Part shown: positions 44-35,865 of the stretch, piece by piece | How positions within the stretch are numbered: position 1 is the stretch's first letter | Layout of the letters: every line of letters starts with the position of its first letter | The notes under the pieces: generated by a model | The model's input: the letters and a program-made list of their open reading frames with translations, nothing else | Told to the model about the DNA's origin: nothing | Databases searched by the model: none | Translations under genes and position numbers: made by a program | DNA from: Candidatus Multivorans sp. | GTDB lineage: Bacteria; Acidobacteriota; Thermoanaerobaculia; Multivoradales; Multivoraceae | Direction of reading: 5' to 3' | Assembly: GCA_965220845.1 (NCBI GenBank) | Contig: CBDCRA010000005.1 | Coordinates: 16-64,015, forward strand | DNA length: 64,000 nt

Positions 44-1864
44 ATGAGAACTAGAGACCGGGTCGCCACTGGGTGCGCCGGCGCCCCCGCCGGCTGCCGC
101 CGCAGGCGGCCAGAGGAACGCGCCGGCCGCAAGGCCGGCATCCGCTTTGTCCTCCTCACCCTCGTCGCGATCGTCTCCCAGCCCGCCGTTGCCCAGTTCC
201 AGGCCGGCGAACCGGCGCCGTCGCGCAACGACCCGGCCGACACGATCCTCGACGGCGGCCAGGTCTACACGCCCGGCGGCTGGGCGGAGTCGATCGCGAT
301 TCGCGACGGCGTCATCGTCGCGGTCGGCGACAGCGCCTCCGTCGCCGCGTTCCGCACCGACTCGACGGACGTGATCGACCTGGCGGGCCGGACCGTCTTC
401 CCCGGCTTCCACGACGTCCACGTCCATCCGCTGATCGCCGGCATGCAGGAGTTCTCCTGCCGCCTGCCTCCGGGGGCGACGCCGGACATCATCGCGGAGT
501 CGGTCGGCGACTGCGCCTCCCGGGCCGAGCCGGGAGAGTGGATCAACGGCGGCAACTGGGTGGCGGCGGTGTTCGAGCCTGGCCAGCAGACCAGGCAGTT
601 CCTGGACGCGGTGGCGCCGGACAACCCGGTCTTCCTGTACGACGAGTCCCACCACAGCGTCTGGGTCAACACGAAGGCCCTGGAAGTCGCCGGCATCGAC
701 CGCGACACGCCGGATCCGGAGGGCGGCATCATCGAGCGCGGCCCGGACGGCAAGCCGAACGGCCTGCTGCGCGAGACGGCCAACGCCATGGTGGCGTCCG
801 TGATCCCTCCCGCCTCGGACGCGCGGAAGATGGAGGGCATGAAGATCGCGACCGACGAGATGCTGGCCCACGGCATTACCTCGTTCACGGTGGCCTACGC
901 GAACTCCTGGCAACTCGGCGCGCTGGCTCGACTGGCGCGCGAGGGCACGTTGAAGCAGCGGGTGCGGGCCTGCGTCGCCTGGGGGCACGACCCGGCCCAG
1001 GCCTATGCCGCCGAGTCCCAGCTCGCGATCCGGGCGACCTACGAGAGTGTGCGCCTGAAGGTCGACTGCGTGAAGATCATGCTGGACGGGGTGCCGACGG
1101 AGAGCCACACCGCGTCGATGCTCGCGCCCTACGAGGACACGACCGGTGCGGACGATCCGCGGCCGAAGCTCGGGCTGCTCCTGGTTCCGCAGGAAGCGCT
1201 GAACGATGCCGTGACGGCCTTCGACCGCCAGGGTCTGCACGTGAAGATGCACGCCGCCGGCGACGGCGCGGTGCGGGCCGCGATCGACGCGGTCGCGGCC
1301 GCCCGGGAACGGAACGGCTTCGGCGGCCCGATGCACGATGTCGCCCACAGCACCTTCGCCGACCCGGCCGACATTCCCAGGCCGCGCGAGCTCGGCATGG
1401 CGTGGGAGTTCTCGCCCTACATCTGGTTCCCCACGCCGATGGCCGCGATCGACATCCGCAAGGCCGTCGGCGACGAGCGGATGAAGCGCTGGGTGCCGAT
1501 CCGGGACGCCCTCGAAACCGGCGCCCTGGTCGCGGCCGGCTCGGACTGGCCGGTCGTGCCCCTGGTCGACCCGTGGCTCGCGGTTGAGACGATGGTGACC
1601 CGCCAGGTCCCCGGCGGCAGCGAGGAAACCCTCGGCCTCCAGGAGCAGGTGACGCTGGAGGACGCGCTGCGCATCCTGACCTGGAACGGTGCCCGCCTGA
1701 TGGGCCAGGGCGACAAGGTCGGCACGATCGAGGTCGGCAAGGAGGCGGACCTCGTCGTCACGTCGCAGAACCCGTTCGATGTCGAGCCGACGGCGGTCCA
1801 CCGGACGAAGGTGGAGATGACGTTCATCGCGGGTGAGAGGGTGTACGCGGCCGGTGCGAACTAG
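44..1864 (+). CDS. Amidohydrolase-family metal-dependent hydrolase (amidohydrolase_3-like), secreted
   Basis: 606-aa ORF. HxH metal-binding motif (HDVHVHPL) and GSDWPV near the C-terminus. The hydrophobic signal-like segment (FVLLTLVAIVSQPAVAQ) follows an Arg-rich leader that is encoded by a REP-like repeat at 66-145. Confidence 0.75.
   Translation: MRTRDRVATGCAGAPAGCRRRRPEERAGRKAGIRFVLLTLVAIVSQPAVAQFQAGEPAPSRNDPADTILDGGQVYTPGGWAESIAIRDGVIVAVGDSASVAAFRTDSTDVIDLAGRTVFPGFHDVHVHPLIAGMQEFSCRLPPGATPDIIAESVGDCASRAEPGEWINGGNWVAAVFEPGQQTRQFLDAVAPDNPVFLYDESHHSVWVNTKALEVAGIDRDTPDPEGGIIERGPDGKPNGLLRETANAMVASVIPPASDARKMEGMKIATDEMLAHGITSFTVAYANSWQLGALARLAREGTLKQRVRACVAWGHDPAQAYAAESQLAIRATYESVRLKVDCVKIMLDGVPTESHTASMLAPYEDTTGADDPRPKLGLLLVPQEALNDAVTAFDRQGLHVKMHAAGDGAVRAAIDAVAAARERNGFGGPMHDVAHSTFADPADIPRPRELGMAWEFSPYIWFPTPMAAIDIRKAVGDERMKRWVPIRDALETGALVAAGSDWPVVPLVDPWLAVETMVTRQVPGGSEETLGLQEQVTLEDALRILTWNGARLMGQGDKVGTIEVGKEADLVVTSQNPFDVEPTAVHRTKVEMTFIAGERVYAAGAN
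66..145 (+). repeat. REP-like repeat type A (about 80 nt; CACTGGGTGCGCCGGCGCCCCCGCCGGCTGCCGCC...CGCGCCGGCCGCAAGGC)
   Basis: Near-identical copy at 35789-35865. Related half-copies at 31181-31255. Contains a GCCGGC palindrome (hairpin potential). Confidence 0.8.
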
Positions 1865-1885
1865 GAGCAACGCCGGCGGCAGACG

Positions 1886-1911
1886 CTGGGTGCGCGGGTC
1901 TTCTGACCCGC
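1886..1911 (+). repeat. REP-like repeat type B (CTGGGTGCGCGGGTCTTCTGACCCGC) with hairpin GCGGGTC-TTCT-GACCCGC
   Basis: Same unit recurs at 1994-2019 (inverted), 27870-27911 (variant), and 30173-30198 / 30221-30246 (tandem). Shares the CTGGGTGCGC core with type A. Confidence 0.8.
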
Positions 1912-1973
1912 CCGCCGGTCCTGGCGCCGCGGAGCGGCGCAGGCCGGGGAGACTGTCGGCCTTCGGCCGGCGC

Positions 1974-3419
1974 TTGGTCCGCCTCCGGCGGAAGCGGGTC
2001 AGAAGACCCGCGCACCCAGTGGGAAGCGTCCTGCTTCTGTTCCTTGCCGCCCCCGTCGCGGCCGCCGAACCGGACGCGCGCGCCCTGTACCGCCTCCACT
2101 GCGGCGGCTGCCACGGGCAGGCGCTCGAGGGCGGACTCGCGGAGCCGCTGATCAAGTCGGACTGGCGCTTCGGCCGGGACGGCTTCTCGGTCGAGAGCAA
2201 CATCCGCCACGGCATCCCGGGCACGGACATGCCGGGCTACCTCGGCGAGCTCTCGGACGAGGAGATGTCGGCCCTGGTCGAGCTGATCTACAGCCTGCAG
2301 ACGGAGCCGATCTGGATCGCCAGGCCGCTGCCGTCCGCGGTGGAGACCGAGCACTACACCCTGCGGGTCGAGTACCTGGCCACCGACGAACTGGAGAACC
2401 CCTGGGGCATCGAGTTCACCGGGCCGTCGGAGGGGCTGATCTCGGAGGACGCGGGCTACCTGCTTCGGTACCGGGACGGCAGGGTCGACCCGGAGCGGAT
2501 CACCGGACTGCCGCCGGTCGACCTCGCGACCTCGACCGGCGGGCTGATGGACATCGCGCTCGACCCGGACCACGCGGAGAACGGCTGGGTCTACGCGGCG
2601 ATCAGCCACTCGGAAGACCCGAACGACCGCTACGCCCCGGGGCTGACCCGGATCATCCGCGGCCGCGTCGACGGCAACCGCTGGCTGGACACGGAGTACC
2701 TGTTCCGGCTCGATCCCGGGTACCACCTGCCCGACAGCAAGCACTGGGGCGGCCGCCTGCTCTTCGACCGCGAAGGCCTCCTGTACTTCTCGATCGGCGA
2801 CATGAGCGCGGCGATGAACTCGCAGGACGCCGCCATGCCCTCGGGCAAGGTCTTCCGCATCCGCCCGGACGGCGGCATCCCGGAGGACAACCCCTTCGCC
2901 GGCGAGGACGGAGCGCTCGGCGCGGTGTTCACGCTCGGCAACCGGAACGTCCAGGGCATGGCCCAGCACCCGGAGACCGGCGCGATCTGGGCCGCCGAGC
3001 ACGGCCCGCGCGGCGGCGACGAGCTGAACCTCCTCGCTCCGGGCGGGAACTACGGCTGGCCGGTCGTCACGTTCGGCGTCAACTACGACGGCTCGGTGAT
3101 CAGCGACCGGACGCACGCCGACGGCATCGTGCCGCCCGTCGTCGAGTGGACGCCGGGGCTCGCCGTCGGCCCGATCGAGTTCGTGTCGAGCCCCGGCTTC
3201 GAGCAGTGGCGAGGCGACCTGCTGGTCGGGTCGCTCTCCTTCGAGGAACTCCGCCGCCTGGAGATCGACGGCGGCCGCGTCACCCGCCAGGAGCTTCTGT
3301 TCAAGGGCCACGGCCGCATCCGCGACATCAAGACCGGCCCGGACGGCGCGCTCTACCTGCTGCTCAACAACCCCGGCGCCCTGGTACGGCTGACGACCGT
3401 AGGATCGGCGGCCAGATGA
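1974..3419 (+). CDS. Cytochrome c domain fused to a PQQ-dependent soluble sugar (glucose/sorbosone) dehydrogenase-like beta-propeller
   Basis: CGGCHG heme-binding motif (LYRLHCGGCHGQ) followed by SGDH/YliI-like propeller motifs (GLLYFSIGD, NYGWP). The ORF track starts at 1833. The probable start is TTG 1974 (MVRLRRKRVRRPAHPVGSVLLLFLAAPVAAA, a good signal peptide) or GTG 2019. Confidence 0.75.
   Translation: MVRLRRKRVRRPAHPVGSVLLLFLAAPVAAAEPDARALYRLHCGGCHGQALEGGLAEPLIKSDWRFGRDGFSVESNIRHGIPGTDMPGYLGELSDEEMSALVELIYSLQTEPIWIARPLPSAVETEHYTLRVEYLATDELENPWGIEFTGPSEGLISEDAGYLLRYRDGRVDPERITGLPPVDLATSTGGLMDIALDPDHAENGWVYAAISHSEDPNDRYAPGLTRIIRGRVDGNRWLDTEYLFRLDPGYHLPDSKHWGGRLLFDREGLLYFSIGDMSAAMNSQDAAMPSGKVFRIRPDGGIPEDNPFAGEDGALGAVFTLGNRNVQGMAQHPETGAIWAAEHGPRGGDELNLLAPGGNYGWPVVTFGVNYDGSVISDRTHADGIVPPVVEWTPGLAVGPIEFVSSPGFEQWRGDLLVGSLSFEELRRLEIDGGRVTRQELLFKGHGRIRDIKTGPDGALYLLLNNPGALVRLTTVGSAAR
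1994..2019 (-). repeat. REP-like repeat type B, inverted copy
   Basis: GCGGGTCAGAAGACCCGCGCACCCAG is the reverse complement of the 1886-1911 unit. The two copies are 80 nt apart and could form a long stem. Confidence 0.8.
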
Positions 3420-4858: not shown

Positions 4859-4886
4859 GGAGCCGCGACGTCAACAGGGGTCGAAC

Positions 4887-6203: not shown

Positions 6204-6217
6204 GAGTCGGCGGGCCC

Positions 6218-8250: not shown

Positions 8251-8263
8251 GGATTCAGCGCAC

Positions 8264-12256: not shown

Positions 12257-12504
12257 CAGCTCCCGGACGACTGGTAGCGGCCGTGGTCAGGCGGTGGCCT
12301 GAGATGTGCCGAAGATGGCCTTCGGCGGGATGTGCGAAAGATCGGCAGGTAAGCAACGATTTACGCCAAGATCGTCACTTCACATGGAGATTTACGCCCT
12401 GGCCCCAGGAGTGCTGGCCGTGCCGGCCGGCTGGTTGTTCTCCCCTCCGGGATGAGCCGCCGTTGCGGCCGCCGCGACGCTGAGCGCGAGGCGGGTGCGC
12501 GGGC

Positions 12505-13185: not shown

Positions 13186-13226
13186 CGCAACCCGGGGACC
13201 TGCTTCGCCGCCGTGCGGAGAGGAGG

Positions 13227-13265: not shown

Positions 13266-13280
13266 GATCGGTCCCAAGGC

Positions 13281-23544: not shown

Positions 23545-23566
23545 GGCTTCGTACCTCCTTGACGGG

Positions 23567-23578
23567 TAAACCGATTTA
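23567..23578. promoter_or_regulatory. LacI-family operator-like site 1 (TAAACCGATTTA, AANCGNTT core)
   Basis: Imperfect palindrome with a central CG, in the divergent region between the TBDR and lacI-family genes. Confidence 0.4.
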
Positions 23579-23634
23579 GCCGGTAGCCGTGAAAAGGGCC
23601 CGGCTTCCTGCCGCTGCAGACGGAAGGGTCGGGC

Positions 23635-23646
23635 TAAATCGTTTTA
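23635..23646. promoter_or_regulatory. LacI-family operator-like site 2 (TAAATCGTTTTA)
   Basis: Second near-palindromic AANCGNTT-type site, 68 nt from site 1. Confidence 0.4.
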
Positions 23647-23734
23647 GCATGCTAGCCTGAGTCTGCACACGCCGCGTAGGGTTGTCAAGATCCTGTGAAG
23701 TTCACCCACTTTTTTGGATCCGGCCGTGAGGAAG

Positions 23735-26030: not shown

Positions 26031-27838
26031 TGATGTTGAGAAGTTCAGGCCGCGCTCCTGCCGGCCCCCCGCGCGCCTGCGCAGCGCGGCCGCGGCGCCG
26101 ACCCCCGGGTTGCTGGTCCGCGTTGCCGGCGATGGCGTTCTCGGTGCTGGGGCCAGCCTTCGCCCAGGCGCAGGACGCCGAGCCGCCGTCTTTCAGCGAA
26201 GTCGTCGACGTTCAGCTCGTCAACGTCGAAGTGTGGGTCAGCGACAGGCGCGGCCGTCCGGTGACCGGCCTGGGTCCGGACGACTTCGAGGTGCGGGAGG
26301 ACGGCGAACCGGTGACGATCGACTTCTTCAGCGAGGTCACGGATGCCGTCGCCGCCGGTCCGGTCGGAGAGCCCGGTGAGCCGGCGTCCGCGGCGGAACC
26401 GGCATCGACGGGCGGGACGGCCGAACCCGCGCATCTCGTCCTCTACTTCGACGAGCTCCATCTCGGTCCGGCCAGCCGCAAGCAGGCGATCGAGGACCTG
26501 AGAGCGTTCCTCGACGAGGAGACGTTCCCGGCCGAACGTGTTCTCATCTTCCGCCAGGACCGCGACCTCGTCACCGAGGCCTACTTCGGCTCCAGCCGCG
26601 AGGACCTGGACGCGGCGCTCGAGCGCATCGCGGCCTCGCCGGGAATGGGCGGCCAGTCGCAGCAGGCGAAGCGGCTCGCGATACGGCGGTTGAACCAGCT
26701 CTGGCAGGACGCGAGGACGCTCGCTTCCGCGGGCAGCAGCCGCCGGAACTCGGCGCCGGCGCCCTGCGGAACGTTCGTGCGCCAGGCGCTGCCCGAGGTC
26801 GAGAACGCCGCCCACATCGGCCGCGACCGGATCGGCGCCACGCTCGATCACCTGACGACGACCGTCCGCTTCCTGGCCGCGCTGCCCGGCGTCAAGACGC
26901 TGCTCTACATCAGCGACTCCCTCGAACGGACTCCCGGCAGCGACCTGCGGGACTTCATCACCGGCCTGTGTCCCGCCGGCGACCGGTTCCGCTCGCAGTC
27001 GCCGGTGGCGGAGCTGTCCACCGGTTTTCACGAGCTCACCCGTCACGCCAACGCGAACCGCGTCACGGTCTACTCGCTCCAGACCAGCGGCCTCCGCCCG
27101 GCGTTCCTGAGCGCGGCGGAGCAGTCCTCGATCGACTTCCAGGGGGCGAACCCCTTCAACAGTTCGGTTCGCGAGGCCGAACGCGACGGCATGGCCGTGC
27201 TCGCCGACGAGACCGGCGGCCGCGCCATCTTCAACCGCAACCAGTTCGGCGACGAACTCGAGCAGATCGCCAGCGAGATGGCGAGCTACTACTCCCTCGC
27301 CTACCGCCCGCCCCACGGCGGCGACCGCGGCGAGCATCAGATCCGCGTACGGGTCCGCGGCCGGAACGTACAGGTCCGTCATCGTCGCGGCTACCGAGAC
27401 AAGAGTTCCGACCAGCGGATGAGCGAGCAGCTCGACGGCGCGCTTTATCTCGGCCTGGTCGAGAACCCGCTCGGCGTGCGGCTGGGCGCGGGCCGCGTTC
27501 GCGCGGCCGGCGGCGGCAAGCGACGACTGCCGCTCCACGTCATGGTGCCGGCCGCGGGAGTCGCCTTCCTGCCGTTCGAGGGCAAGGAGATGGCGCAGAT
27601 CAGGGTGGAGGTCGCCAGCCGCCACGCCCAGACCTCGAAGGTAGTGAGAGAAGACAAGACCTTCCTGGTGGAAGCGCCCCCGGATCGCGACACGCGTCTT
27701 CTGGACCTGGTCTTCAACATCGACATTCCGGACGGCCTGAACCTGGTCGCGGTCGGCGTGCGGGACGACGCTACGCGCGAGACCGCGTTCGTCTCGACCA
27801 CCCTGGCCGTGGGCGAAGGGGCCGGGAACGGACGTTGA
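26027..27838 (+). CDS. VWFA-related acidobacterial domain protein (TIGR03436-like), secreted
   Basis: The N-terminal motif FSEVVDVQLVNVEVWVSDRRGRPVTGLGPDDFEVREDGEPVTIDFF is the hallmark of the acidobacterial VWFA-related family. Alternative start at 26132 (MAFSVLGPAFAQA). Confidence 0.75.
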   Translation: MMMLRSSGRAPAGPPRACAARPRRRPPGCWSALPAMAFSVLGPAFAQAQDAEPPSFSEVVDVQLVNVEVWVSDRRGRPVTGLGPDDFEVREDGEPVTIDFFSEVTDAVAAGPVGEPGEPASAAEPASTGGTAEPAHLVLYFDELHLGPASRKQAIEDLRAFLDEETFPAERVLIFRQDRDLVTEAYFGSSREDLDAALERIAASPGMGGQSQQAKRLAIRRLNQLWQDARTLASAGSSRRNSAPAPCGTFVRQALPEVENAAHIGRDRIGATLDHLTTTVRFLAALPGVKTLLYISDSLERTPGSDLRDFITGLCPAGDRFRSQSPVAELSTGFHELTRHANANRVTVYSLQTSGLRPAFLSAAEQSSIDFQGANPFNSSVREAERDGMAVLADETGGRAIFNRNQFGDELEQIASEMASYYSLAYRPPHGGDRGEHQIRVRVRGRNVQVRHRRGYRDKSSDQRMSEQLDGALYLGLVENPLGVRLGAGRVRAAGGGKRRLPLHVMVPAAGVAFLPFEGKEMAQIRVEVASRHAQTSKVVREDKTFLVEAPPDRDTRLLDLVFNIDIPDGLNLVAVGVRDDATRETAFVSTTLAVGEGAGNGR

Positions 27839-27869
27839 GTTCGGTGCACCGCCGAACTGGCTGCGTCTG

Positions 27870-27911
27870 CTGGGTGCGCGGGTCCGTAGCCGGGGGTTTT
27901 CTGACCCCCGG
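27870..27911 (+). repeat. REP-like repeat type B variant (CTGGGTGCGCGGGTCCGTAGCCGGGGGTTTTCTGACCCCCGG)
   Basis: CTGGGTGCGCGGGTC core plus a GGGGGT-TTTCTG-ACCCCC hairpin. Lies between the VWFA and TPR genes. Confidence 0.7.
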
Positions 27912-27939
27912 TGAACTTGCGCCGGAGGCGGCGGGAAAG

Positions 27940-30165
27940 ATGCGCCGGCCGTTAGGCCAGCTCCTCTTTGGCGGCCTGGCCCTGGTCCTTGCCGTTACGA
28001 CGCCGGCGTCGACGCCGGCCCAGGAAGAGCCGCCCGAGGCCGCCATGCAGCGCGCCCTGTCGGAGGCCGAGACCTCGCTCCGCCGCGACGAACCGCAGGC
28101 GGCCGAGAGCTGGTACCGGGAAGCGCTGCTCGAAGGCTGGCTGCTGCTCGGTGACCTGCACCGCGCCAACGGCGCCCCGGCCGAGGCGGAGACCGCCTAC
28201 GAACGGGCCCTCGTCTCCGCCCTCGAAGCGCGCCGCCCGCTGCTCGCCCTCGCCGAACTCGCGCTCGAGCGCGGCGATCCCGACGGCGCGGCGGACCACC
28301 TCCGGCGTCTGCTGGCGCGCAGTTCGGGAGACGGTCGCGCCGTGCGGCTCCTCGCCCGGGCCTTCAACGCGAGCGGACAGCCGGAGATGGCGGTGCAGCA
28401 GTTGGAGCGGGCCGTCGAGTCCACGCCGGAAGACGTGGAGACCCGCTTCGCGCTCGCCAGCGGCTACCTCCGCCTGGAGCGTCCGGAGGCCGCCGAGAAG
28501 CTCTTCCGGGACGTGGCCGCGGAGCGTCCGATTCCGCAGACCTGGATTCTGATCGGCCGGACCTACCGCGACTACGGGGAGTACGGGAAGGCCCGCGAGG
28601 CGCTCGAGCGGGCCATCGAGGACGACCCGCGGGTGCCGCGGGCCCGCTTCTACCTGGGGACCGTGGAGCTCCTCGACCGGGGCCGGGGCGCCGTCGAGGA
28701 GGCCATCGACCAGTTCAAGGAGGAACGCCGCATCTCGCCCGAGGATCCGGTGAACCACCTCTACCTGGGAATGGTGCTGGTCGATGCCCGGCGCTTCGAG
28801 GAGGCGCTGGCCTCGCTGGAGATCGCGGTGGAGTCTCAGTCCACCCGACCCAACGCCCTGCATCATCTGGGCCGCGCTCTGCTCGGACTCGATCGGCCGG
28901 CGGAAGCAGCGACCGCGCTCGAGCGCGCCATCGATCTGGCGGAAGGCGGGTACGGGAGCTCGTTCAACGCCAACCAGATGGAGAGCCTCCACTACCAGCT
29001 CGCCCTAGCGCTCCGCCGCACCGGCGACGAGGCGCGGGCGCTGCCTCACTTCGAGGGCGCCGAGCGCTTCTCGGTGGCCCTGGCCCAGACCTCGCGCGAC
29101 CGCATGTCGAACTACCTGGACGGCCACGGCAAGGAACCGTCGGCCGGGGTCGTCGGCTTGTCCGTCTTCAGCGAGACGCCGGTTTCCGGCCTGTCGCCGG
29201 AGGTTCGGGCACAACTCGTGCGAACGGCGCGAACGACTCTCGCCCGCGCCTCGTTCAATCTCGGCGTGATGGCGACCCAGGCCCGGCGCTTCACCCGGGC
29301 CGCGGGTCATTTCGAGCAGGCCGCCTCGGTCGATCCGGCCTTCCCGAGGGTCCAGTACTCGCTGGGCGTCGCCCGCTTCAACGCCGGGCAGTTCGAGCAG
29401 GCGACCTCGCCGCTGTCTGCGGCGCTGGAGCTCCAGCCAGACGACCCCGCGCTGCGACGGATGCTCGCGCTGGCTTGGCTCAATGCCGAGGCCTACGATC
29501 GCGCGGCGGAGCTCCTGGCTACCGATCCGGCCCGCGCGGCCGACCGTTCGCTTCAGTACGCCTACGGCCTGGCCCTTGTCCGGAGCGGCCGGAGCGTCGA
29601 GGCGCAACCGATTTTCGACCGCCTGCTCGACGAGCACGCCGACTGGCCCGAACTCAACGTGCTGCTCGGCCAGGCGGCGGCCCAGGAAGGCGACTTCGAC
29701 GCGGCGGTGGAGCACCTGGAGCGCGCCATCGAACTTCGGCCCGGCGTCGCCGAGGCGCAGGCCACGCTCGGCAACATCTATCTCCGCCAGGGCCGCCTCG
29801 AGGAAGCCGGCGCCGCGCTGCGCGCCGAACTGGCCTCCCATCCCGCCGACCACCAGTCGCGCTACGTGCTGGCCACCGTGCTGGAGCTCGACAACCAGCC
29901 CCAGGCCGCGTTGCGCGAAGTGGAACTCGTCCTCGACGCCGAACCCGACTTCGCCGACGCCCGCTACCTCCGCGGCAAGATCCTGCTCGAGGACGGCCGG
30001 GTCGACGAGGCCGCCGCGCAGTTGCTCGCGGCCGCGGAACTGGCGCCGGAAGATCCCAACATCCGCAACCAGCTCGGCCTGGCCTACCAGAAGCTCGGAG
30101 ACCGCGAGAAGGCCCGAGAGCAATTCGAGATCTTCCAGCGACTCAAGGGAAGGTCCGACCAGTGA
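27940..30165 (+). CDS. Tetratricopeptide-repeat protein, secreted
   Basis: 741 aa from ATG 27940 (MRRPLGQLLFGGLALVLAVTTPASTPAQ). Many 34-residue A/L/E/R-rich TPR units. The track ORF at 26968 is an out-of-frame overlap. Confidence 0.8.
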   Translation: MRRPLGQLLFGGLALVLAVTTPASTPAQEEPPEAAMQRALSEAETSLRRDEPQAAESWYREALLEGWLLLGDLHRANGAPAEAETAYERALVSALEARRPLLALAELALERGDPDGAADHLRRLLARSSGDGRAVRLLARAFNASGQPEMAVQQLERAVESTPEDVETRFALASGYLRLERPEAAEKLFRDVAAERPIPQTWILIGRTYRDYGEYGKAREALERAIEDDPRVPRARFYLGTVELLDRGRGAVEEAIDQFKEERRISPEDPVNHLYLGMVLVDARRFEEALASLEIAVESQSTRPNALHHLGRALLGLDRPAEAATALERAIDLAEGGYGSSFNANQMESLHYQLALALRRTGDEARALPHFEGAERFSVALAQTSRDRMSNYLDGHGKEPSAGVVGLSVFSETPVSGLSPEVRAQLVRTARTTLARASFNLGVMATQARRFTRAAGHFEQAASVDPAFPRVQYSLGVARFNAGQFEQATSPLSAALELQPDDPALRRMLALAWLNAEAYDRAAELLATDPARAADRSLQYAYGLALVRSGRSVEAQPIFDRLLDEHADWPELNVLLGQAAAQEGDFDAAVEHLERAIELRPGVAEAQATLGNIYLRQGRLEEAGAALRAELASHPADHQSRYVLATVLELDNQPQAALREVELVLDAEPDFADARYLRGKILLEDGRVDEAAAQLLAAAELAPEDPNIRNQLGLAYQKLGDREKAREQFEIFQRLKGRSDQ

Positions 30166-30172
30166 ACTTCCG

Positions 30173-30246
30173 CTGGGTGCGCGGGTCCTCTGACCCGCCG
30201 GGTGCACGCGTCTTCGTCCGCTGGGTGCGCGGGTCTTCTGACCCGC
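30173..30246 (+). repeat. REP-like repeat type B, two tandem units
   Basis: CTGGGTGCGCGGGTCCTCTGACCCGCC ... CTGGGTGCGCGGGTCTTCTGACCCGC. Each unit encodes W-V-R-G-S-S-D-P in the reading frame of the downstream TPR gene. Confidence 0.8.
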
Positions 30247-31148
30247 TGCCGCCGAAGGCGGCCAGAAAGCGCGCCGGCCGAAGGCCGCCTCCTCTCTTCT
30301 GCTCGGCGCTCTTCCTGCTCCTCGTTGCGACAACAGCTCTCACAGCCCAGCCCGAAGCCGCCGCGACCGAGTCCGTCCGCCACCTCCTCGACCAGGCCCG
30401 CACCCTCGCCGGCCGCAACCAAGCCGAAGCCGCCGCCGAAGCACTCGGCCGGGCCATCTCCCTGGCCCCCAACTCCGAGGACGTCCTCAACGCCTACGCT
30501 CGCTTCTCCCTCGCCCGGAGCAACCCGATCCAGGCGATCCTGGCGCTCGAGCCGCTGGCTCGCATGCACCCCGGAGAGGCGGAGTACGCCTACCTGCTCG
30601 GCGTGGCCCGCATGCAGGTAGGCGAGATGGCGCAAGCGGCCGAGGTACTCCACGAGGCGGCAGACCTGGATCCGCGTCGAGCCCTGACCCACATCGGCCT
30701 CGGGCTGGCCCTCAACCGCGTGGACCGCTTCGACGAGGCCCGGGAAGCCCTGGCCGCGGCGCTGCGGCTGGAGCCCGGCAACGTCGAGGCGCTGGCCGCC
30801 CTGTCCGAGGCCGTCGAGGGACTCGGCGACCTGGAAGAAGCGACCGGACTCGCGGAACGGGCGCTGGCGGTCAATCCCGATCACCCGACAGCGCTGGTGA
30901 CGATCGGAACCGCGCGCGTGAAGGAAGGTCGCTTCGAGGAGGCCCGGGACGCGCTCACTCGAGCGGTCGCCGTCGAGACCCAGTCGATCAAGGGGCACTA
31001 CCAGCTCAGCCTCGCGCTTGCCCGCCTCGGCGACCGCGAGGGGGCGGAGCGCCACTTGCAGTTCTCCCGCGAGGCCCAGGCCGCGATCGAACAGCACATC
31101 GAGCGTCTGCGCGCCCAGCCGCCGCTCGGCTCAAGGACCGAACCTTGA
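30225..31148 (+). CDS. Tetratricopeptide-repeat protein (short), secreted
   Basis: GTG start inside the repeat (VRGSSDPLPPKAARKRAGRRPPPLFCSALFLLLVATTALTAQ is a signal peptide), then TPR units. The start could also be GTG 30179. The track ORF at 29475 overlaps the upstream gene. Confidence 0.65.
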   Translation: MRGSSDPLPPKAARKRAGRRPPPLFCSALFLLLVATTALTAQPEAAATESVRHLLDQARTLAGRNQAEAAAEALGRAISLAPNSEDVLNAYARFSLARSNPIQAILALEPLARMHPGEAEYAYLLGVARMQVGEMAQAAEVLHEAADLDPRRALTHIGLGLALNRVDRFDEAREALAAALRLEPGNVEALAALSEAVEGLGDLEEATGLAERALAVNPDHPTALVTIGTARVKEGRFEEARDALTRAVAVETQSIKGHYQLSLALARLGDREGAERHLQFSREAQAAIEQHIERLRAQPPLGSRTEP

Positions 31149-32941
31149 ACGGAGCCCGCGTACAAGGAACTCGACCGGTAGCCACTGGGTGCGCCGACGC
31201 CCCAGGAACTCGGCCGGCAGCCACTGGGTGCGCCGGCGCCCCCGCCGGCATCCGGCGCGTCAGCGCCGGCCTCCGGAATCCCGCCGCGGCAGCCACGATC
31301 GTGCTCCTCGTCTGGCCCATGTCGGCGCGCGCCCAGCCCACCGGCGACGCGCCCCTCTTCCGCGACGTCACCGAGTCCACCGGCATCACCTTCCGCCACA
31401 ACTCCGCGCCCGAGAAGAAGTACATCGTCGAGTCGATGAGCGGCGGCGTCGGGCTCTTCGACTTCGACCGCGACGGCCTGCTCGACATCTACTTCGTCAA
31501 CTCCCTCACGGTCGACACCGCGAACGACCCGGAGTCGTCGGACAGCGCGCTCTACCGCAACCTCGGCGACGGCACGTTCAGGGACGTGGCCCCCGAGGCC
31601 GGCGTCGCCCACCCCGGCTGGGGAATGGGCCTGTGCATCGCCGACGTCGACGGCGACGGCTGGCAGGACCTCTACGTGACCGGCATCGGCCGGAACCGGC
31701 TCTACCGCAACTCGGGCGAGGGCACGTTCACCGACGTGGCGACGGAACTCGGCGTCGCGGCCTCGGGCTGGTCGGCGGGCTGCGGCTTCGCCGACTACGA
31801 CCGCGACGGCGATCTCGACCTGTTCGTGAGCCGCTACGTGGAGTTCGATCTCGACAACCTGCCGGAGTTCGGCAGCGGCAAGACCTGCGAGTACCGCGGC
31901 GTCGCCGTCCAGTGCGGACCGCGCGGCCTGCCGGGCACCTCCGACCTCCTGTTCCGCCAGGAAGAGGACGGCGCCTTCACCGAGGTCGGCGAGGAGGCCG
32001 GGGTTCGCGATCCGGACGGCTACTTCGGCCTCGGCATCGCCTGGGTCGATGTGGACGGCGACGGCTGGCTCGACCTCTACGTCGCTAACGACTCGACCCC
32101 CAACTACCTCTACATGAACCGCAAGGACGGCACCTTCGAGGAGTCGGGCTTCTTCATGGGCGTCGCGGTGAGCGAGGACGGCGGCGAGCAGGGAGGCATG
32201 GGCGTCGCGGTCGGCGACTACGACGGCAGCGGCCGGCTGAGCCTGTTCGTCAGCAACTTCGCCGAGGAGTACAACGCGCTTTACCGCAACGAAGGCGAAT
32301 ACTCGAGCGACGCCTCCTTCCGCTCGAGGACGGGCGCGTCGAGCCTGCCCTACGTCGGCTGGGGGACCGCGTTCTTCGACTACGACAACGACGGCTGGGA
32401 GGACCTGGTCGTGGTGAACGGCCATGTGTACCCCCAGCTCGACGGTGCCCGGCTCGGCGCTTCGGCGGGGTACCGCCAGCGCAAGCTGCTCTACCGCAAC
32501 CTGGGCGACGGCACCTTCGAAGAGGTGGCGGAGCGCGGCGGTCCGGCCTTCCTCGAACAGCGGGTCAGCCGCGGCCTGGCGATCGGCGACCTCGACAACG
32601 ACGGCCGGGTGGACCTGGTGATCAACGACCTCGACGGTTCACCGACGGTGCTGCGCAACGAGGCCGGCGGCGGCCACTGGCTGCAGGTCAGGCTGGAGGG
32701 CGCCGGCAGGAACACGGACGCGATCGGCGCGGTGATCCGGGTGACGGCTGGCGAGCGAAGCCAGATCCGCAACATCCGCAGCGGCACCAGCTACCTGTCC
32801 CAGGACGACTTCCGGCAGCACTTTGGTCTCGGCGACGCCGCCACCGTCGAGTCGGTCGTCGTGACCTGGCCCGACGGCTCGACGACGGAGCGGGAAGACG
32901 TCGCGGTCGACCAGCTACTGGTCATCGAGCAATCTCAGTAG
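31145..32941 (+). CDS. CRTAC1-family protein (FG-GAP/VCBS repeats + ASPIC/UnbV C-terminal domain), secreted
   Basis: Repeated DxDGDGxxDL(Y/F)V FG-GAP-like motifs (DFDRDGLLDIYFVN, DVDGDGWQDLYVTG, DYDRDGDLDLFVS, DVDGDGWLDLYVAND). C-terminal UnbV_ASPIC-like tail (VTWPDGSTTERE). Confidence 0.8.
   Translation: MNGARVQGTRPVATGCADAPGTRPAATGCAGAPAGIRRVSAGLRNPAAAATIVLLVWPMSARAQPTGDAPLFRDVTESTGITFRHNSAPEKKYIVESMSGGVGLFDFDRDGLLDIYFVNSLTVDTANDPESSDSALYRNLGDGTFRDVAPEAGVAHPGWGMGLCIADVDGDGWQDLYVTGIGRNRLYRNSGEGTFTDVATELGVAASGWSAGCGFADYDRDGDLDLFVSRYVEFDLDNLPEFGSGKTCEYRGVAVQCGPRGLPGTSDLLFRQEEDGAFTEVGEEAGVRDPDGYFGLGIAWVDVDGDGWLDLYVANDSTPNYLYMNRKDGTFEESGFFMGVAVSEDGGEQGGMGVAVGDYDGSGRLSLFVSNFAEEYNALYRNEGEYSSDASFRSRTGASSLPYVGWGTAFFDYDNDGWEDLVVVNGHVYPQLDGARLGASAGYRQRKLLYRNLGDGTFEEVAERGGPAFLEQRVSRGLAIGDLDNDGRVDLVINDLDGSPTVLRNEAGGGHWLQVRLEGAGRNTDAIGAVIRVTAGERSQIRNIRSGTSYLSQDDFRQHFGLGDAATVESVVVTWPDGSTTEREDVAVDQLLVIEQSQ
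31181..31255 (+). repeat. REP-like repeat type A-related, two half-units (GCCACTGGGTGCGCCG[A/G]CGCCCC ...)
   Basis: Shares the CCACTGGGTGCGCCGGCGCCCCCGCCGGC motif with 66-145 and 35789-35865. Confidence 0.7.
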
Positions 32942-33020
32942 AGAGTTCCGCCGCGACGACGCCTCCGCGGCCGCATGTCCGAGGATTGACGAGGTCTGCC
33001 ACCTGAAATACCATCTCGCC

Positions 33021-33287
33021 ATGCTCATTACCATCGACGGCGCGGGAAGGCTGGTCGTGCCGAAAGCCCTCAGAGAGCAGTTCAACCTGACTCCCGGGTG
33101 TGAGCTCACGATCGAAGCCGGTCCGAACGGGATCATCCTCCGCCGAACCGAAGTCGAGCCGGCCCTGGTTCGCAAGCAGGGGATTCTGATCCATCACGGG
33201 TCCCCGCGCGCGTCGGTGGACATCGGCGAGTTCGTCCGCGCCGAACGCAAGGCACGAAGCGCTCGCATCGCCCGCGACATCGGCTGA
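33021..33287 (+). CDS. vapB: AbrB/MazE-type (SpoVT_AbrB) antitoxin, VapB-like
   Basis: 88 aa. The swapped-hairpin motif (DGAGRLVVPKALREQFNL) is characteristic. Confidence 0.75.
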   Translation: MLITIDGAGRLVVPKALREQFNLTPGCELTIEAGPNGIILRRTEVEPALVRKQGILIHHGSPRASVDIGEFVRAERKARSARIARDIG

Positions 33288-33719
33288 GTGCGCACGCTGT
33301 TCGACACATCGGTGGTCGTCGCGGCCCTGGTGGATCAACTCGGTGCCCACGAAGCGGCCTTCCGCGAGTTCCGGCGCTGTTCGCATGGCGAGAACACGGG
33401 CTATTGCTCGACGCACGCGGTGGCGGAAACCTACGCGACGCTGACGGCCCTGCCGCTGCAACGGAGGATCTCGCCGGACGAGGCGCGACGGCTCATCGAA
33501 GGCACCGTGCTCGGCCGCCTGGCCGTGATTCCGCTCGACTCCGCCGACTACCGCGCGGCTCTACGCCAGGTCGCGAATCAGGGGCTGAGCAGCGGGGCAA
33601 TCTACGATGCTCTCCATGCCCAGTGTGCGCGCAAGGAAGGTGTCGACCAGATTCTCACGTACAACCTGTCCGATTTCGACCGGTTCGACCTCGACGGCAT
33701 CCTGGTCGCGTCGCCGTGA
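33288..33719 (+). CDS. vapC: PIN-domain ribonuclease toxin, VapC-like
   Basis: GTG start abuts the vapB stop. The N-terminal LFDTSVVVAAL with conserved acidic residues suits the PIN fold. Confidence 0.75.
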   Translation: MRTLFDTSVVVAALVDQLGAHEAAFREFRRCSHGENTGYCSTHAVAETYATLTALPLQRRISPDEARRLIEGTVLGRLAVIPLDSADYRAALRQVANQGLSSGAIYDALHAQCARKEGVDQILTYNLSDFDRFDLDGILVASP

Positions 33720-33738
33720 GGCACGCGGTGTACGACAA

Positions 33739-34791
33739 TCACCGGTCCCGCGACATCCATCGCTTGCCTGAGCTGTGCGGCGCGCTCTCAAGGCCGCGGT
33801 TGAAGCCCTTCGCCGCGTGCGGATAGTCCGGCCCCACGACACCCCCGGCGCATTCGCCGGCCGGCGGGATCACCCAGTCGCAGCCGGGCGTGTTCTCCGG
33901 ACCGTCCTCCCAGCACTGCCGTAGCGCCTCGAGGTCCGCCGCGAGTGAGCCCGGGTCGTGCGGCGGCATGTGCTCGTTCGGATCCCAGAAGTCGCCGGTG
34001 AACTCCTCCAGCGTCTCCATGGCCATCCGGTGGCAGCCGAGGCAGCCGTTGCCCTCGATGTGGATCGTCCGCATGTCCCAGTCCGGCGCGCCCACGACGT
34101 AGTAGGGCGGGTTTGGGCCCGGCAGGACGGGGACCACGGGCCGTCGCGGGTTCTCGGGAAGCCGCGCGGACTTGATCCACGGGTTGTGGATGAACGGGTC
34201 CGCCTGGTGGCAGCGTACGCACTGGATGTCTCCGGCCGGCATGTACGCGTCGTCGAACTCCGGATCGTCCGGGCCCGGCAGCACGCCGAGCAGCCGGTTG
34301 TTCTCGCCGACGGAGGTCCAGGGGCTGTTGTCGCCGGACTCGAAGAAGCAGGTGGCGCCCGTCTCATAGTTGTAGCCGATCATCTGGACCGAGTCGCCGA
34401 TGTCCACGTTGAAGACGTCGTCACGGCCGTCGTGGCGGCAGAAGCTCACCCAGACGACCTCGGAACGCGGCGAGCCGTCCGCGTTCCTGCCCGCGTGGCG
34501 TTGCAGGCTCGAGCCGGGCATGCAGTCGCCGATCTGGAGACTTCCGTCGTCGCATTGGTGCAGCCCCGGGTCCTCGAAGATCTCCTCGCCGTCCTGCCGG
34601 ATGCGGATGCGCGCCCCCTGGCTGCAGTCGACCGTCGGCGCCACGCCGAGGTGCGGCTCGCACATCGCCGCGTAGGCGCGGGCGCTCTTCGGCATCGGTG
34701 GGTTCGCGCCCTCGGGGACGCACTGTTCCGCGGACTGGCCCTGCGCAAGGCCCGGGCCGACGATGAGAAGCAGGGCGGTGAGTGCTCGCAC
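33739..34791 (-). CDS. Secreted Cys-rich protein with two CxxCH haem c-binding motifs (putative dihaem c-type cytochrome)
   Basis: Signal peptide MRALTALLLIVGPGLAQG. CVRCH and CLGCH motifs. No confident family assignment. Confidence 0.5.
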   Translation of the reverse strand: MRALTALLLIVGPGLAQGQSAEQCVPEGANPPMPKSARAYAAMCEPHLGVAPTVDCSQGARIRIRQDGEEIFEDPGLHQCDDGSLQIGDCMPGSSLQRHAGRNADGSPRSEVVWVSFCRHDGRDDVFNVDIGDSVQMIGYNYETGATCFFESGDNSPWTSVGENNRLLGVLPGPDDPEFDDAYMPAGDIQCVRCHQADPFIHNPWIKSARLPENPRRPVVPVLPGPNPPYYVVGAPDWDMRTIHIEGNGCLGCHRMAMETLEEFTGDFWDPNEHMPPHDPGSLAADLEALRQCWEDGPENTPGCDWVIPPAGECAGGVVGPDYPHAAKGFNRGLESAPHSSGKRWMSRDR

Positions 34792-34794
34792 GCC

Positions 34795-35709
34795 CTACAT
34801 CTCCAGCGCGACTTCCTTCTTCGCGTTCGACTCCAGCGACTGGACCTTGCGCTTCAGGTACTTGTTGAGCTGCCGGTCGTAGCGGCTCGTCGCGCCGGCG
34901 TGGCGGGCTCGCACGTAGGGCTCCCAGCGGGCTTCGCCGGCCGCCTCGACCTGGTCGCCCATCACGGTGACGCGCTGGATGATGCGCTCCTCGTTGAAGT
35001 CATTCAGCACGAAGTGCTGCGTGCAGCGGTTGTCCCACATGGCGAGCGTGCCCTGCCGCCAGCGGTAACGAACGGTGAAGCGCGTGTTCGTCGCCCAGCG
35101 GGTCAGGTAGCCGAGCAGGTGGTCGCTCTCCTCGTGGCTGAGCTCGACGATGCGGCGGGTGAAGTGCTCGTTGACGAACAGCGACTTGCGGCCGGTATCC
35201 GGATGGACGCGGACGACCGGGTGGATCGTCATCTTCTCCGGCTTGCCGTGCGGCGTCGCGTCGTGCAGCGCGGTCAGCCCCTCGCAGAGCTCCTGCAGCG
35301 GCGCCGACAGCTCCTCGTAGGCCCTGTACATGTTGGCCCACATCGTGTCGCCGCCGACCTCCGGGCACTTCACCATGTTGAGGATCGCCATGACCGAGGG
35401 GCTTTCCTGGAAGCTGATGTCGCTGTGCCACTCGTCGGCGACGCCGCCGCGGGTCGCGACCAGCTCGAACACCTCCGGATGGTCCAGGAACGGGTTGTTC
35501 AGGTGCGGGTGCCCCTCCAGCTCGCCGAAGTGCCGTCCGAAGGCGACGTGCTCCGCCACGTCCAGATGCTGGTCGGGAAAGAAGAGGACCTGATGGTCCA
35601 GCAACAGGCCGCGGATCGTTGCGGCCTCCTCGGGGCCGGCCTCCGCCAGCGGCAGATCGTGGACCTCGGCGCCGAGGGACCCGGAGAGACGGACGACTCG
35701 ATGGCTCAT
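34795..35709 (-). CDS. TauD/TfdA-family Fe(II)/2-oxoglutarate-dependent dioxygenase
   Basis: 305 aa from ATG 35709 (MSHRVVRLSGSLGAEVHDL...). HxD (WHSDISF) and TauD-like layout. The track start at 35910 is probably an over-extension. Confidence 0.8.
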   Translation of the reverse strand: MSHRVVRLSGSLGAEVHDLPLAEAGPEEAATIRGLLLDHQVLFFPDQHLDVAEHVAFGRHFGELEGHPHLNNPFLDHPEVFELVATRGGVADEWHSDISFQESPSVMAILNMVKCPEVGGDTMWANMYRAYEELSAPLQELCEGLTALHDATPHGKPEKMTIHPVVRVHPDTGRKSLFVNEHFTRRIVELSHEESDHLLGYLTRWATNTRFTVRYRWRQGTLAMWDNRCTQHFVLNDFNEERIIQRVTVMGDQVEAAGEARWEPYVRARHAGATSRYDRQLNKYLKRKVQSLESNAKKEVALEM

Positions 35710-35788
35710 GGGAGTTCTCCTGCGGTTTGGAGTAACGAGGCTATCTCTAACGAGCGGCTGTTGTGCCTCCGACAACGTCGACGGACCA

Positions 35789-35865
35789 CACTGGGTGCGC
35801 CGGCGTCCCCGCCGGCTGCCGCCGTAGGCGGCTTCAACACGCGCCGGCCGCAAGGCTGGCTCCGC
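35789..35865 (+). repeat. REP-like repeat type A, second full copy
   Basis: About 90% identical over about 77 nt to 66-145. Lies between the divergent tauD-like and ATPase genes. Confidence 0.8.

Follow-up and report, generated by a model that had tools for sequence, protein, structure and literature searches.

REP/REPIN-like palindromic repeats in Candidatus Multivorans and other Thermoanaerobaculia, and their association with RAYT transposase genes

Introduction

REPs, as described in Escherichia coli, Pseudomonas fluorescens and Stenotrophomonas, are short palindromes rich in GC whose 5' flank is conserved. They are found in hundreds of copies, extragenic and near gene ends. They appear as singlets, as inverted doublets which fold into long hairpins, or as arrays. 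Each one is a single palindrome of 20–40 nt, and most carry a GTAG or CGTC tag (PMC3733652). The RAYT genes code for Y1/HUH transposases (PF01797, NF047646) and are themselves flanked by repeats, and every lineage of transposase has a repeat variant of its own. Definitions of REP, REPIN and RAYT are available (PMC3337134, PMC5581495, PMC12306157), and roles which serve the host have also been proposed for the REPs of E. coli (PMC3733652, PMC12306157).

Two other kinds of element have to be considered. Rickettsia palindromic elements (RPEs) and other REPs located in ORFs are palindromes found in frame in coding genes, where they are apparently tolerated. CGTC-tagged repeats (the class of RPEs) have been reported without an associated transposase (PMC3733652). 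Di Nocera et al. found an excess of REPs at the N-termini of ORFs, and warn that many cases are due to misannotation (PMC3733652). MITEs are small, non-coding, multi-copy elements with terminal inverted repeats, served in trans by a DDE transposase.

Here we describe a family of repeats in a bacterium of the class Thermoanaerobaculia (Acidobacteriota). We have studied a window of 64,000 nucleotides of Candidatus Multivorans sp. (contig CBDCRA010000005.1), together with related genomes and metagenome contigs. In the literature we have found nothing on Candidatus Multivorans and no description of a REP family in Thermoanaerobaculia.

Results

Anatomy of the repeats

In the window the core CTGGGTGCGC is found nine times in its exact form, at positions 69, 1886, 2010 (reverse strand), 27870, 30173, 30221, 31185, 31224 and 35791; shuffled sequences give 0.31 copies. 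When one mismatch is allowed there are 19 matches against 11.6 expected, so that the signal is diluted. Two types can be distinguished: the hairpin of type B, GGGTCTTCTGACCCGC, has five matches in the window (0.13 expected) and the extension of type A has three (0 expected). The initial annotation had reported a family of this kind; the family is real, and its copies had been placed at the right positions and in the right orientations, including the inverted pair 1886–2019 and the tandem heads at 30173 and 30221.

The basic unit is a head of 26 nt, which consists of the core and a hairpin with a 7-bp stem (HP1). Its consensus is C-A/G-CTGGGTGC followed by the stem: the motif CTGGGTGC is single-stranded, and the tetraloop of HP1 is made of pyrimidines. 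In the full unit, about 75 nt long, the head is followed by two further GC hairpins (HP2 and HP3) with loops of the G-N-A type. There are also inverted doublets of about 140 nt, similar to REPINs, and short tandem arrays. Inverted pairs with a spacing of 40–150 nt include 84 of the 248 heads present in 899 kb of related loci. A subset of units has outer inverted arms of 17–27 bp. These arms, GCATGGAACTGGCCGCC, were considered as a separate element, but they are found almost only around the 75-nt unit and have therefore been counted as part of a long form. The consensus head has no GTAG or CGTC tag at one end; where GTAG does appear, in some HP2 loops and in the variant at 27886, it is accidental.

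The hairpins are strongly conserved. The 7-bp stem of HP1 is 99.9% paired in 116 copies: four of its seven pairs vary on both sides, none varies on one side only. The five covariation measures all exceed those of 500 out of 500 shuffles. RNA folding of the units, which had been suggested as a check, gives a centroid with three hairpins, and the inverted doublets have a z of about −10. No G-T wobble is present in HP1. In HP3 there are 7 G-T and 11 A-C pairs, a strand-symmetric distribution which is the pattern expected of DNA. A scan of the window against Rfam at the gathering threshold and a permissive scan of two repeat-rich loci gave nothing relevant.

Copies in the window

The copies found in the window are given in Table 1. 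They follow the stop of the preceding gene in a region of tightly packed co-directional genes, so that the 5' end of the next gene is touched too. In Pfam the neighbour genes correspond to Amidohydro_3, cytochrome c with GSDH, TPR, TPR and FG-GAP/UnbV_ASPIC, in agreement with the names they had been given. Mechanical ORFs run in frame through the repeats (44..1864, 1833..3419, 26968..30165, 29475..31148 and 31145..32941), as had been proposed for genes of exported proteins.

Table 1. Repeat copies in the window of Candidatus Multivorans sp.
Feature	Position	Strand	Details
Full three-hairpin unit, type A	66..145	+	Head 69–94; core 69–78; HP1 stem 77–83/88–94; HP2 96–110; HP3 122–139
REPIN-like inverted doublet	1883..2023	.	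Head-only (+) 1886–1911; full unit (−) 1951–2021, head 1994–2019
Type B unit with enlarged first hairpin	27869..27969	+	Exceeds the L001 and L068 units by about 51 nt
Head-only copy, type B	30173..30198	+	8 nt past stop TGA 30163–30165
Full unit, type B	30219..30297	+	Within the second TPR gene, at its 5' end
Truncated type A head	31185..31207	+	Core and degenerate hairpin
Type A head 31224–31249 with small hairpin (CCGGCGCGTCAGCGCCGG)	31224..31290	+	Upstream of the FG-GAP/ASPIC start
Full unit, type A	35788..35866	+	Divergent spacer between the TauD gene and the AAA_14/DUF4143 gene
L001, L068: related strains.

The initial annotation had taken these repeats often to encode Arg/Gly/Pro-rich leaders in front of signal peptides. 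This may hold for two copies, 66–145 and 30221–30297, which seem to be translated: in 3–4 orthologues the stretch from the repeat to the signal-peptide core contains no canonical start. The first one lies 12 nt past the stop (TAG 51–53) of an upstream paralogous amidohydrolase. ATG 44 is in front of it, and the hydrophobic signal core begins behind it at 146, with no ATG, GTG or TTG in frame between the unit and the h-region. Close orthologues have the unit in the same place, while the distant orthologues, with 565–590 aa, have short signal peptides. In the second TPR gene the hydrophobic core directly follows the unit, and in L001, L027 and L068 the unit has kept its position and its open frame; the head-only copy in front of it is missing in L027 and L068, which have the full unit only. 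GTG 30225 had been considered the only plausible start of this gene. However, the frame contains two further candidates, GTG 30177 and GTG 30162, the latter overlapping the upstream TGA; all three are upstream of the unit or within it.

The other copies are different. The doublet only abuts a start codon, GTG 2019. This GTG has the frame of the cytochrome c-GSDH gene and is on the edge of the reverse core (CCCAGTG). The whole doublet folds into a single long hairpin (−70 kcal/mol), and strain L109 has at this site a single forward unit followed directly by TTG. The copy described at 27870–27911 was correctly located, but the unit to which it belongs is a variant which extends to 27969. The first TPR gene starts inside it, at ATG 27940, 11 nt past the GGAGG of the HP2 loop (27924–27928); this ATG is ACG in L068. 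Its HP3 encodes the n-region RRPLGQ.

As the orthologues indicate, the real start of the FG-GAP/ASPIC gene is GTG 31301; the copy at 31181–31255 is upstream of it and untranslated. The orthologue in L068 has no element, with GGAG and ATG beside the hydrophobic core. That in L027 has one head and an ATG start, and in the window and in L001 the ATG has become ACG, with a GTG two codons later. The truncated head is absent from L027 and L068. The last unit is intergenic and does not overlap any predicted gene: TauD starts at 35709 on the minus strand and the AAA_14/DUF4143 gene at ATG 35957. It is conserved in L001 at 9832–9910.

Distribution in related genomes

The family is present in more than 20 genomes of Thermoanaerobaculia and in many metagenome contigs. 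The genome scan gave more than 107 stretches in at least 20 genomes of Acidobacteriota; the metagenome scan gave 107. Placement was studied in the 248 heads mentioned above. Only eight of them (3%) are more than 150 nt inside a gene, although 90% of this DNA is coding. Heads occupy 48% of the convergent spacers, 17% of the co-directional and 19% of the divergent ones, so that convergent spacers are occupied 2.5 times as often as divergent. Most of the 149 full copies are intergenic, with a median distance of 17–25 nt to a stop codon versus about 79 nt to a start. A location on the 5' ends of genes, which had been put forward as the rule, is therefore not what we find. Both orientations occur: about 40% of the copies are antisense to the neighbour gene, and many lie between convergent genes. 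The unit follows the majority gene strand in 59 loci versus 33 (p = 0.009), and its orientation has no relation with the local GC skew. The repeats are stem-loop palindromes, in many copies with a consensus, extragenic and near gene ends, as is the case for REPs.

Differences between strains

Strains with about 95% identity differ by gain, loss and subtype swaps of copies, so that the presence/absence polymorphism expected among relatives does occur. One array has five copies in one strain and two in another, with identical flanks. There are two clean polymorphisms in coding DNA: 39 nt (13 codons) in an aldehyde dehydrogenase gene, with no alternative start downstream, and 75 nt (25 codons) in a linker in the middle of a gene. 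Both have a whole number of codons and are found in genes for non-exported proteins, which indicates that in-frame insertion is tolerated in general. They resemble RPEs in this respect: in-frame insertions in coding genes, with predicted read-through. No target-site duplication is found at these two sites. No target-site rule could be derived: at several, or most, of the "empty" alleles the flanks have diverged or small HP3-like hairpins are present.

Association with RAYT genes

Nine RAYT loci of related genomes and contigs were examined, and each of them has heads, doublets or arrays on its two sides, at a distance of 25–270 nt. Their genes match PF01797 above the cut-off. With NF047646 they give 76.8–84.9 bits for a cut-off of 80, four out of seven being just under this NCBIfam value. 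Neither the HUH motif nor the catalytic Tyr varies. The variant of HP1 is specific for each lineage: RAYT P0136 is found with type A, P0146 and P0138 with type B. Three loci (L218, L219 and L222) conserve the gene order kinase-RAYT. No RAYT gene is present in the window, and the evidence of linkage comes from the related genomes and contigs. None was found either in the 899 kb of related loci in which the heads were counted, with an approximate E. coli RayT query and a regular expression (HUH/WQxRFW); with the same query RAYTs were found only after the metagenome scan. No contig location was found for protein P0126.

The presence of the repeats around the RAYT loci, with a different HP1 variant for each lineage, including the types A and B of the window, indicates a REP/REPIN-RAYT system. 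The term REP-like palindromic, used from the start, was therefore appropriate. Judging from their hairpins, types A and B would belong to two populations served by different RAYTs.

Discussion

Very probably these repeats form one family of small non-autonomous palindromic elements of the REP/REPIN type, which are spread by RAYT and are found mostly after stop codons. A RAYT (REP-associated tyrosine, HUH/Y1) encoded elsewhere in the genome would recognize the hairpin with its 5' flank and spread the units; by analogy with the E. coli enzyme, recognition may take place on single-stranded DNA. Each RAYT lineage would serve its own hairpin variant. Copies would survive where they are least harmful, mainly just past stop codons. 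Less often they might be kept in coding DNA which tolerates residues rich in Arg, Gly, Pro and Ala: n-regions of signal peptides, N-terminal tails and inter-domain linkers. DNA with 70% GC keeps ORFs open across the repeats, so that many of the apparent leaders are annotation artefacts. We infer that a minority of the in-frame copies is really translated and that a few units may now supply a start codon.

The likeness to known REP/REPIN-RAYT systems extends to several of the features described in the Introduction: GC-rich palindromes with a conserved 5' flank, a large number of extragenic copies near gene ends, the singlet, doublet and array forms, transposase genes flanked by repeats and the pairing of lineages with variants. 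There are also differences. In place of a GTAG or CGTC tag the head has CTGGGTGC; three hairpins in a row, 75 nt in all, are the commonest form instead of one palindrome; a subset has outer inverted arms; and the host is a member of the Thermoanaerobaculia. RPEs are similar by the strain-polymorphic insertions of 39 and 75 nt and by the insertions in n-regions, for which translation is predicted. However their sequence family is unrelated, and here the majority of copies is extragenic and relatives have a cognate RAYT. Among the features of MITEs that were examined, the repeats are likewise small, non-coding and multi-copy, the long forms do have inverted termini and the enzyme would act in trans, but the clean sites have no target-site duplication and the transposase is Y1/HUH instead of DDE. 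We dropped attC sites, since GTTRRRY ends are absent, and CRISPR, since there are no spacer arrays.

The units might be more than tolerated products of RAYT-driven turnover: they could have been exapted repeatedly as N-terminal modules of exported proteins, which would diversify signal peptides under selection. They would then provide start codons (the core GTG, or an ACG mutated to ATG), Arg-rich n-regions and, in the HP2 loop, an SD-like GGAGG, while gain, loss and subtype swapping between strains would generate the diversity. We consider this improbable.

Another idea, somewhat less probable still, is that the units are portable 5' cassettes selected at the starts of exported genes, where they would bring a promoter, an RBS, a start codon or an Arg-rich n-region which helps export. 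An N-terminal hydrophobic segment is indeed present in 42 of the 76 genes with a unit at or near their 5' end and in 197 of 527 others (odds ratio 2.07, p = 0.004). This modest and non-exclusive link with export comes, however, from a home-made heuristic applied to loci which were picked because they carry the repeat. Units do supply starts in some cases, such as ATG 27940, GTG 2019 at the edge of a unit and the core GTG, which is in frame in several genes; yet the FG-GAP/ASPIC orthologue without a unit has a normal SD and ATG. Divergent spacers contain two 5' ends, and their occupancy is less than half that of convergent spacers; similar in-frame insertions are also found in non-exported proteins. 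Scans for sigma-70 promoters and intrinsic terminators at five repeat sites found none that overlaps a unit, so that the mobile promoter/RBS cassette of the initial annotation has no support. A conserved N-terminal targeting peptide and peptides of the Tat/ESPR type were also discarded: the units are used in both orientations and in all three frames (frames 2 and 3 in the embedded copies), they encode unrelated peptides and no conserved one.

It is very unlikely that the repeats are in essence 3'-end elements which serve the host, with hairpins that stabilize the upstream mRNA, terminate transcription or modulate the termination of translation, and with RAYT responsible for dispersal only. The short distance to stop codons, the enrichment in convergent spacers and the mild bias for the sense orientation would agree with such a role. 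But there is no T-tract past the hairpins, none at the five sites scanned was scored as an intrinsic terminator, and strains of 95% identity may have or lack a given unit with no compensation that can be seen. Such a role is also compatible with the REP/REPIN-RAYT explanation and does not exclude it. Least probable of all is a structured cis-acting RNA (leader, riboswitch, attenuator or sRNA module) whose hairpins act on the downstream gene: it would account for three conserved hairpins with compensatory changes and for the preference for the majority gene strand, but all of these changes are of the Watson-Crick kind and neither strand has a G-U bias, no Rfam family matches, the copies are mostly at 3' ends, often antisense or between convergent genes, and they number hundreds and are linked to RAYT genes.

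An abundant and conspicuous repeat of Thermoanaerobaculia can thus be assigned, with good probability, to the known REP/REPIN-RAYT class, with an anatomy of head, three hairpins, doublets and RAYT-specific hairpin variants. It adds clean cases of REPs in frame in coding DNA, and the paired RAYTs and hairpin variants may be used to study substrate recognition by RAYT. In these genomes with 70% GC gene callers extend ORFs into the repeats, and N-termini and signal-peptide predictions close to them should therefore be checked. Miscalled starts were also observed in the called N-terminus of RAYT P0145 and in the FG-GAP/ASPIC gene of L001, whose start is called too far downstream.

The repeat unit

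The repeats described in the initial annotation form a genuine and abundant family. Their 10-nt core CTGGGTGCGC has nine exact matches in the window, all of them at copies listed there, as compared with 0.31 expected from shuffles; the type B hairpin has five (0.13 expected) and the type A extension three (0 expected). Reading of the sequence and alignment of the copies give a modular unit, with a full length of about 75 nt. It starts with a head of 26 nt, which comprises the core and hairpin HP1 (7 bp, loop YYCY); types A and B are head variants which differ in HP1. Usually HP2 (GCCGCC-GNA-GGCGGC) comes next and, after a spacer on its 3' side, HP3, typically GCCGGCC-GNAA-GGCCGGC.

Pairing statistics were obtained from an alignment (A3) of 116 distinct full copies. 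HP1 is paired in 99.9% of the cells, HP2 in 99% and HP3 in 86%, the shortfall in HP3 being due to variant stems misplaced by the alignment. Four of the seven HP1 pairs vary on both sides and none on one side only; the variants are GGGTC/GACCC, GGGCC/GGCCC, GGACC/GGTCC, CGGCG/CGCCG, CGACG/CGTCG and CGGCC/GGCCG. All five measures of covariation lie above 500 of 500 shuffles and above every slid control. HP1 is Watson-Crick in 810 of 812 cells with no G-T wobble, and the mismatches of HP3 are balanced (7 G-T vs 11 A-C). Both strands are therefore under equal constraint, as is expected of DNA and not of one RNA strand. Loops such as C-GNA-G and GCGAAGC are of the kind which gives very stable DNA mini-hairpins. 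On folding as DNA, the centroid consists of the three hairpins. Single units, which have a high GC content, give modest z-scores (-1.2 to -2.9); the 141-nt doublet reaches about -10. No Rfam family matches the repeats.

Some of the 75-nt units lie between outer inverted arms, which are 17-36 bp long and have the consensus GCGCTGAC-TTGCATGGAACTGGCCGCC; the pairing partners within one copy are more alike than arms across copies. The unit at 27870 has an enlarged first hairpin (27886-27911), in which a GTAG precedes a palindrome of its own (GTAG-CCGGGGGT-TTTC-TGACCCCCGG). In form this corresponds to a classical REP with a GTAG tag, lying within the unit. This variant recurs in related loci L003, L022, L045, L049, L050 and L101.

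Coordinates of repeat copies, RAYT genes and other features in the window and in related loci (L numbers)
Sequence	Position	Feature	Remarks
Window	66-145	Full unit	Type A
Window	27869-27969	Full unit	Variant
Window	30219-30297	Full unit	
Window	35788-35866	Full unit	
Window	1883-2023	Inverted doublet	
Window	30173	Head-only or truncated copy	
Window	31185	Head-only or truncated copy	
Window	31224	Head-only or truncated copy	
L075	560-700	Unit with outer arms	
L002	2125-2260	Unit with outer arms	
L078	1079-1200	Unit with outer arms	Minus strand
L058	6800-6960	Unit with outer arms	
L172	3380-3988	RAYT ORF	NF047646, 84.8 bits (cut-off 80)
L184	492-1319	RAYT ORF	NF047646, 78.1 bits (cut-off 80)
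L218	2796+/2912-	Doublet	
L218	3001-3606	RAYT gene	
L218	3642+/3756-	Doublet	
L221	2012-2862	Array beside RAYT gene	5 copies
L220	2358-2862	Array beside RAYT gene	2 copies, flanks identical to L221
L222	3619-4172	Array beside RAYT gene	
L223	1704-2733	Array beside RAYT gene	
Window	38644-54151	Strain-specific island, 15.5 kb	L001 13199-13307: convergent spacer with one REP unit only (13213-13288)
Window	12304-15860	Strain-specific segment	L109 20072-20199: short REP-bearing spacer
Window	32963-33751	Strain-specific stretch, 790 nt	L001 7458-7635: short spacer with REP units
Window	62169-62241	tRNA gene	Rfam RF00005, 61 bits

Distribution and associated transposases

A pattern which fixed core and HP2 only matches at least 107 eight-kb tiles among 20 species-level genomes, whose titles are all Acidobacteriota: Thermoanaerobaculia, Candidatus Multivorans or "Holophagales". 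Metagenomes (JGI and WGS) provide 107 further stretches. An HMM built from the matches detects 224 copies in the first 899 kb, 149 of them full length, and 543 in 1.86 Mb.

These repeats are very probably REP/REPIN elements served by RAYT transposases, a known kind of element. No RAYT-like ORF is present in the first 899 kb of related loci. Two metagenome ORFs, in L172 and L184, match PF01797 (Y1_Tnp) above cut-off and also match NF047646, "REP-associated tyrosine transposase"; both are flanked by repeats. A protein search with RAYT gave many homologues, the close ones on Mb-size Acidobacteriota contigs. In all of seven further RAYT contexts, heads, doublets or tandem arrays lie on both sides of the gene at 25-270 nt, with up to 17 heads in 6.6 kb at the densest; L226 has the same layout as L218. 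The HUH motif (MPNHxH) and the catalytic tyrosine (YI..NPV) are invariant in the seven proteins, which score 76.8-84.9 bits with NF047646 (cut-off 80).

The HP1 variant tracks the RAYT lineage. CGGCG, found in window type A, goes with RAYT protein P0136, CGACG with P0142, and GGGTC (type B) with P0146; P0138 has both GGGTC and GGGCC. GGACC accompanies P0143, P0145 and the L184 protein, and CGGCC accompanies P0121/L172. These are features which define REPIN-RAYT systems (PMC3337134, PMC5581495), the RAYT linkage being known here from genomes and contigs of relatives. The sole described REP feature missing is the GTAG or CGTC tag (PMC3733652). We have found no earlier description of a REP family in Thermoanaerobaculia. 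The head and the three-hairpin unit are unusual as compared with known REPs.

Next to RAYT genes the units form tandem arrays, which repeat every 121-138 nt, or every 286 nt when made of doublets. In L172, partial cores (CACTGGGTGC-AAA-CACTGGGTGCGCC-AAA...) also follow one another in runs at 3030-3075 and 4000-4050. The called N-terminus of P0145 (L224 3001-3816; MPAFGRPAAWPHPARCREAASAS...) extends into the flanking unit, a gene-calling artefact.

Position relative to genes

Gene contexts were determined with a purpose-built codon-usage gene finder. Convergent genes surround 41 of the 149 full copies and divergent genes 19; between co-directional genes there are 36 in sense and 22 in antisense. 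Another 22 overlap a predicted CDS, 17 of them within about 120 nt of its 5' end, and 9 lie at contig ends, where one neighbour gene is missing. The median distance is 17-25 nt to the adjacent stop codon vs about 79 nt to the adjacent start. Heads are present in 48% of the spacers between convergent genes, vs 17% of those between co-directional and 19% of those between divergent genes; although 89.7% of the DNA is coding, only 8 of the 248 heads are more than 150 nt inside a gene. These heads are single (138), in inverted pairs (84) or in direct tandems (26). Unit orientation favours the majority gene strand (59 loci vs 33, p = 0.009) and has no relation to local GC skew.

Such a distribution is classic for REPs and unlike that of a 5' cassette. 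The initial annotation placed the repeats on the 5' ends of genes; as a rule this fails, since copies hug stop codons and convergent spacers are the most occupied. In the window, where the genes concerned are co-directional and tightly packed, the copies lie 8-37 nt past the stop of the preceding gene and therefore touch the 5' end of the next gene too. The neighbouring genes themselves were correctly called, as confirmed by Pfam. A role as co-transcribed hairpins in mRNA stability is possible. A promoter cassette had also been proposed, but no promoter-like consensus overlaps the units, nor does any terminator-like one.

Copies at the start of genes and inside them

The proposal that repeats encode leaders holds only in part. 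It most likely applies to copies 66-145 and 30221-30297: between unit and hydrophobic core no canonical start is found in the window, nor in L101, P0001 or P0002, nor in L001, L027 or L068. Distant homologues of the amidohydrolase have short signal peptides and a length of 565-590 aa; for the three unit-bearing ones it is 603-611 aa.

Copy 35789 is intergenic, and 31181-31255, upstream of the start, is untranslated. At the latter site L068 has no element: TGA is followed by 17 nt with GGAG and then by an ATG which adjoins the hydrophobic core. This ATG is also present in L027, together with one head. In the window and in its sister strain L001 (about 95% identical) there are two heads, ACG replaces ATG and GTG is found two codons later. 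The FG-GAP/ASPIC gene of L001 is called from an internal ATG, 5814 (window 31319), and loses its hydrophobic core, again a gene-calling artefact. Copy 1886-2019 does no more than abut the start codon, the in-frame GTG 2019 being formed by the final three bases of the reverse core. At the GSDH site of L109, a third strain, TTG lies directly 3' of the unit. ATG 27940 is inside the 27870 unit, 11 nt downstream of GGAGG; in L068 this codon is ACG and no start follows, which means that the gene must begin further upstream.

In-frame insertion is real and extends beyond exported proteins, as two clean polymorphisms show. The aldehyde dehydrogenase of L109 has 39 nt (13 codons) inserted after codon 3, with no later start. 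In a protein of about 470 aa (L169 4508-6376 vs L148 3429-4844) 75 nt (25 codons) are polymorphic in an inter-domain linker; a second, older repeat-coded linker stretch (EPSGSRPEGRRTQWAES) is common to both alleles. Embedded copies differ in frame and orientation, therefore no peptide is conserved. GC-rich REPs appear to be tolerated in signal-peptide n-regions, which are malleable, and in N-terminal tails and linkers, sometimes supplying the start codon. Among genes whose 5' end carries a unit or lies near one, 42 of 76 have a predicted N-terminal hydrophobic segment, as compared with 197 of 527 (p = 0.004, odds ratio 2.07); this modest excess was obtained with a home-made heuristic on a biased sample of loci. 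REPs inside ORFs and their excess at N-termini are already on record, together with a caution that many of them are due to misannotation (PMC3733652).

Turnover between strains

The window, L001, L109 and other relatives differ in their copies. L001 has a 139-nt doublet (8672-8810) at the 5' end of a minus-strand gene; the window orthologue lacks it and begins with a plain signal peptide. The 27870 unit, enlarged in the window, is canonical in L001. At the same amidohydrolase site L109 has type B (10004-10083) instead of type A, and ahead of the GSDH gene a single forward unit instead of the doublet. The 39-nt insertion of L109 is a clean head-only one relative to the window. Tandem duplications of units are seen among other relatives.

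HP1 subtypes are swapped at orthologous sites with flanks 95-98% identical, and every change keeps the palindrome; an example is CGGCG vs CGGCC in L133 10314-10359 and L182 2281-2334 (flanks 98% identical). Such swaps suggest that units were replaced or converted in situ and did not change by point mutation.

Three segments of the window are strain-specific. The island has a lower GC (0.64-0.65) and carries type I restriction-modification genes (HsdR, HsdM, HsdS), an AAA_15/AAA_21 ATPase and a sigma-54 activator; segment 12304-15860 encodes a TetR regulator and a sulfatase/DJ-1 protein. REP-bearing spacers lie opposite each segment, thus all three coincide with a REP site in another strain. 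It may be that DNA is preferentially integrated or replaced at REP sites.

Other features of the window

An identical 18-nt sequence, AGAGGGAGCGTTCGACCC, is found at 55944-55961 and 57255-57272, directly before the ATG of the genes for a 115-aa protein and a HgmA homologue. It is probably a ribosome-binding region common to both genes, or else the product of a small duplication. The divergent spacer 23565-23650, ahead of gene 23726, contains AT-rich half-sites in pairs (TAAACCGATTTAGC ... GCTAAATCGTTTTAGC), resembling an operator.
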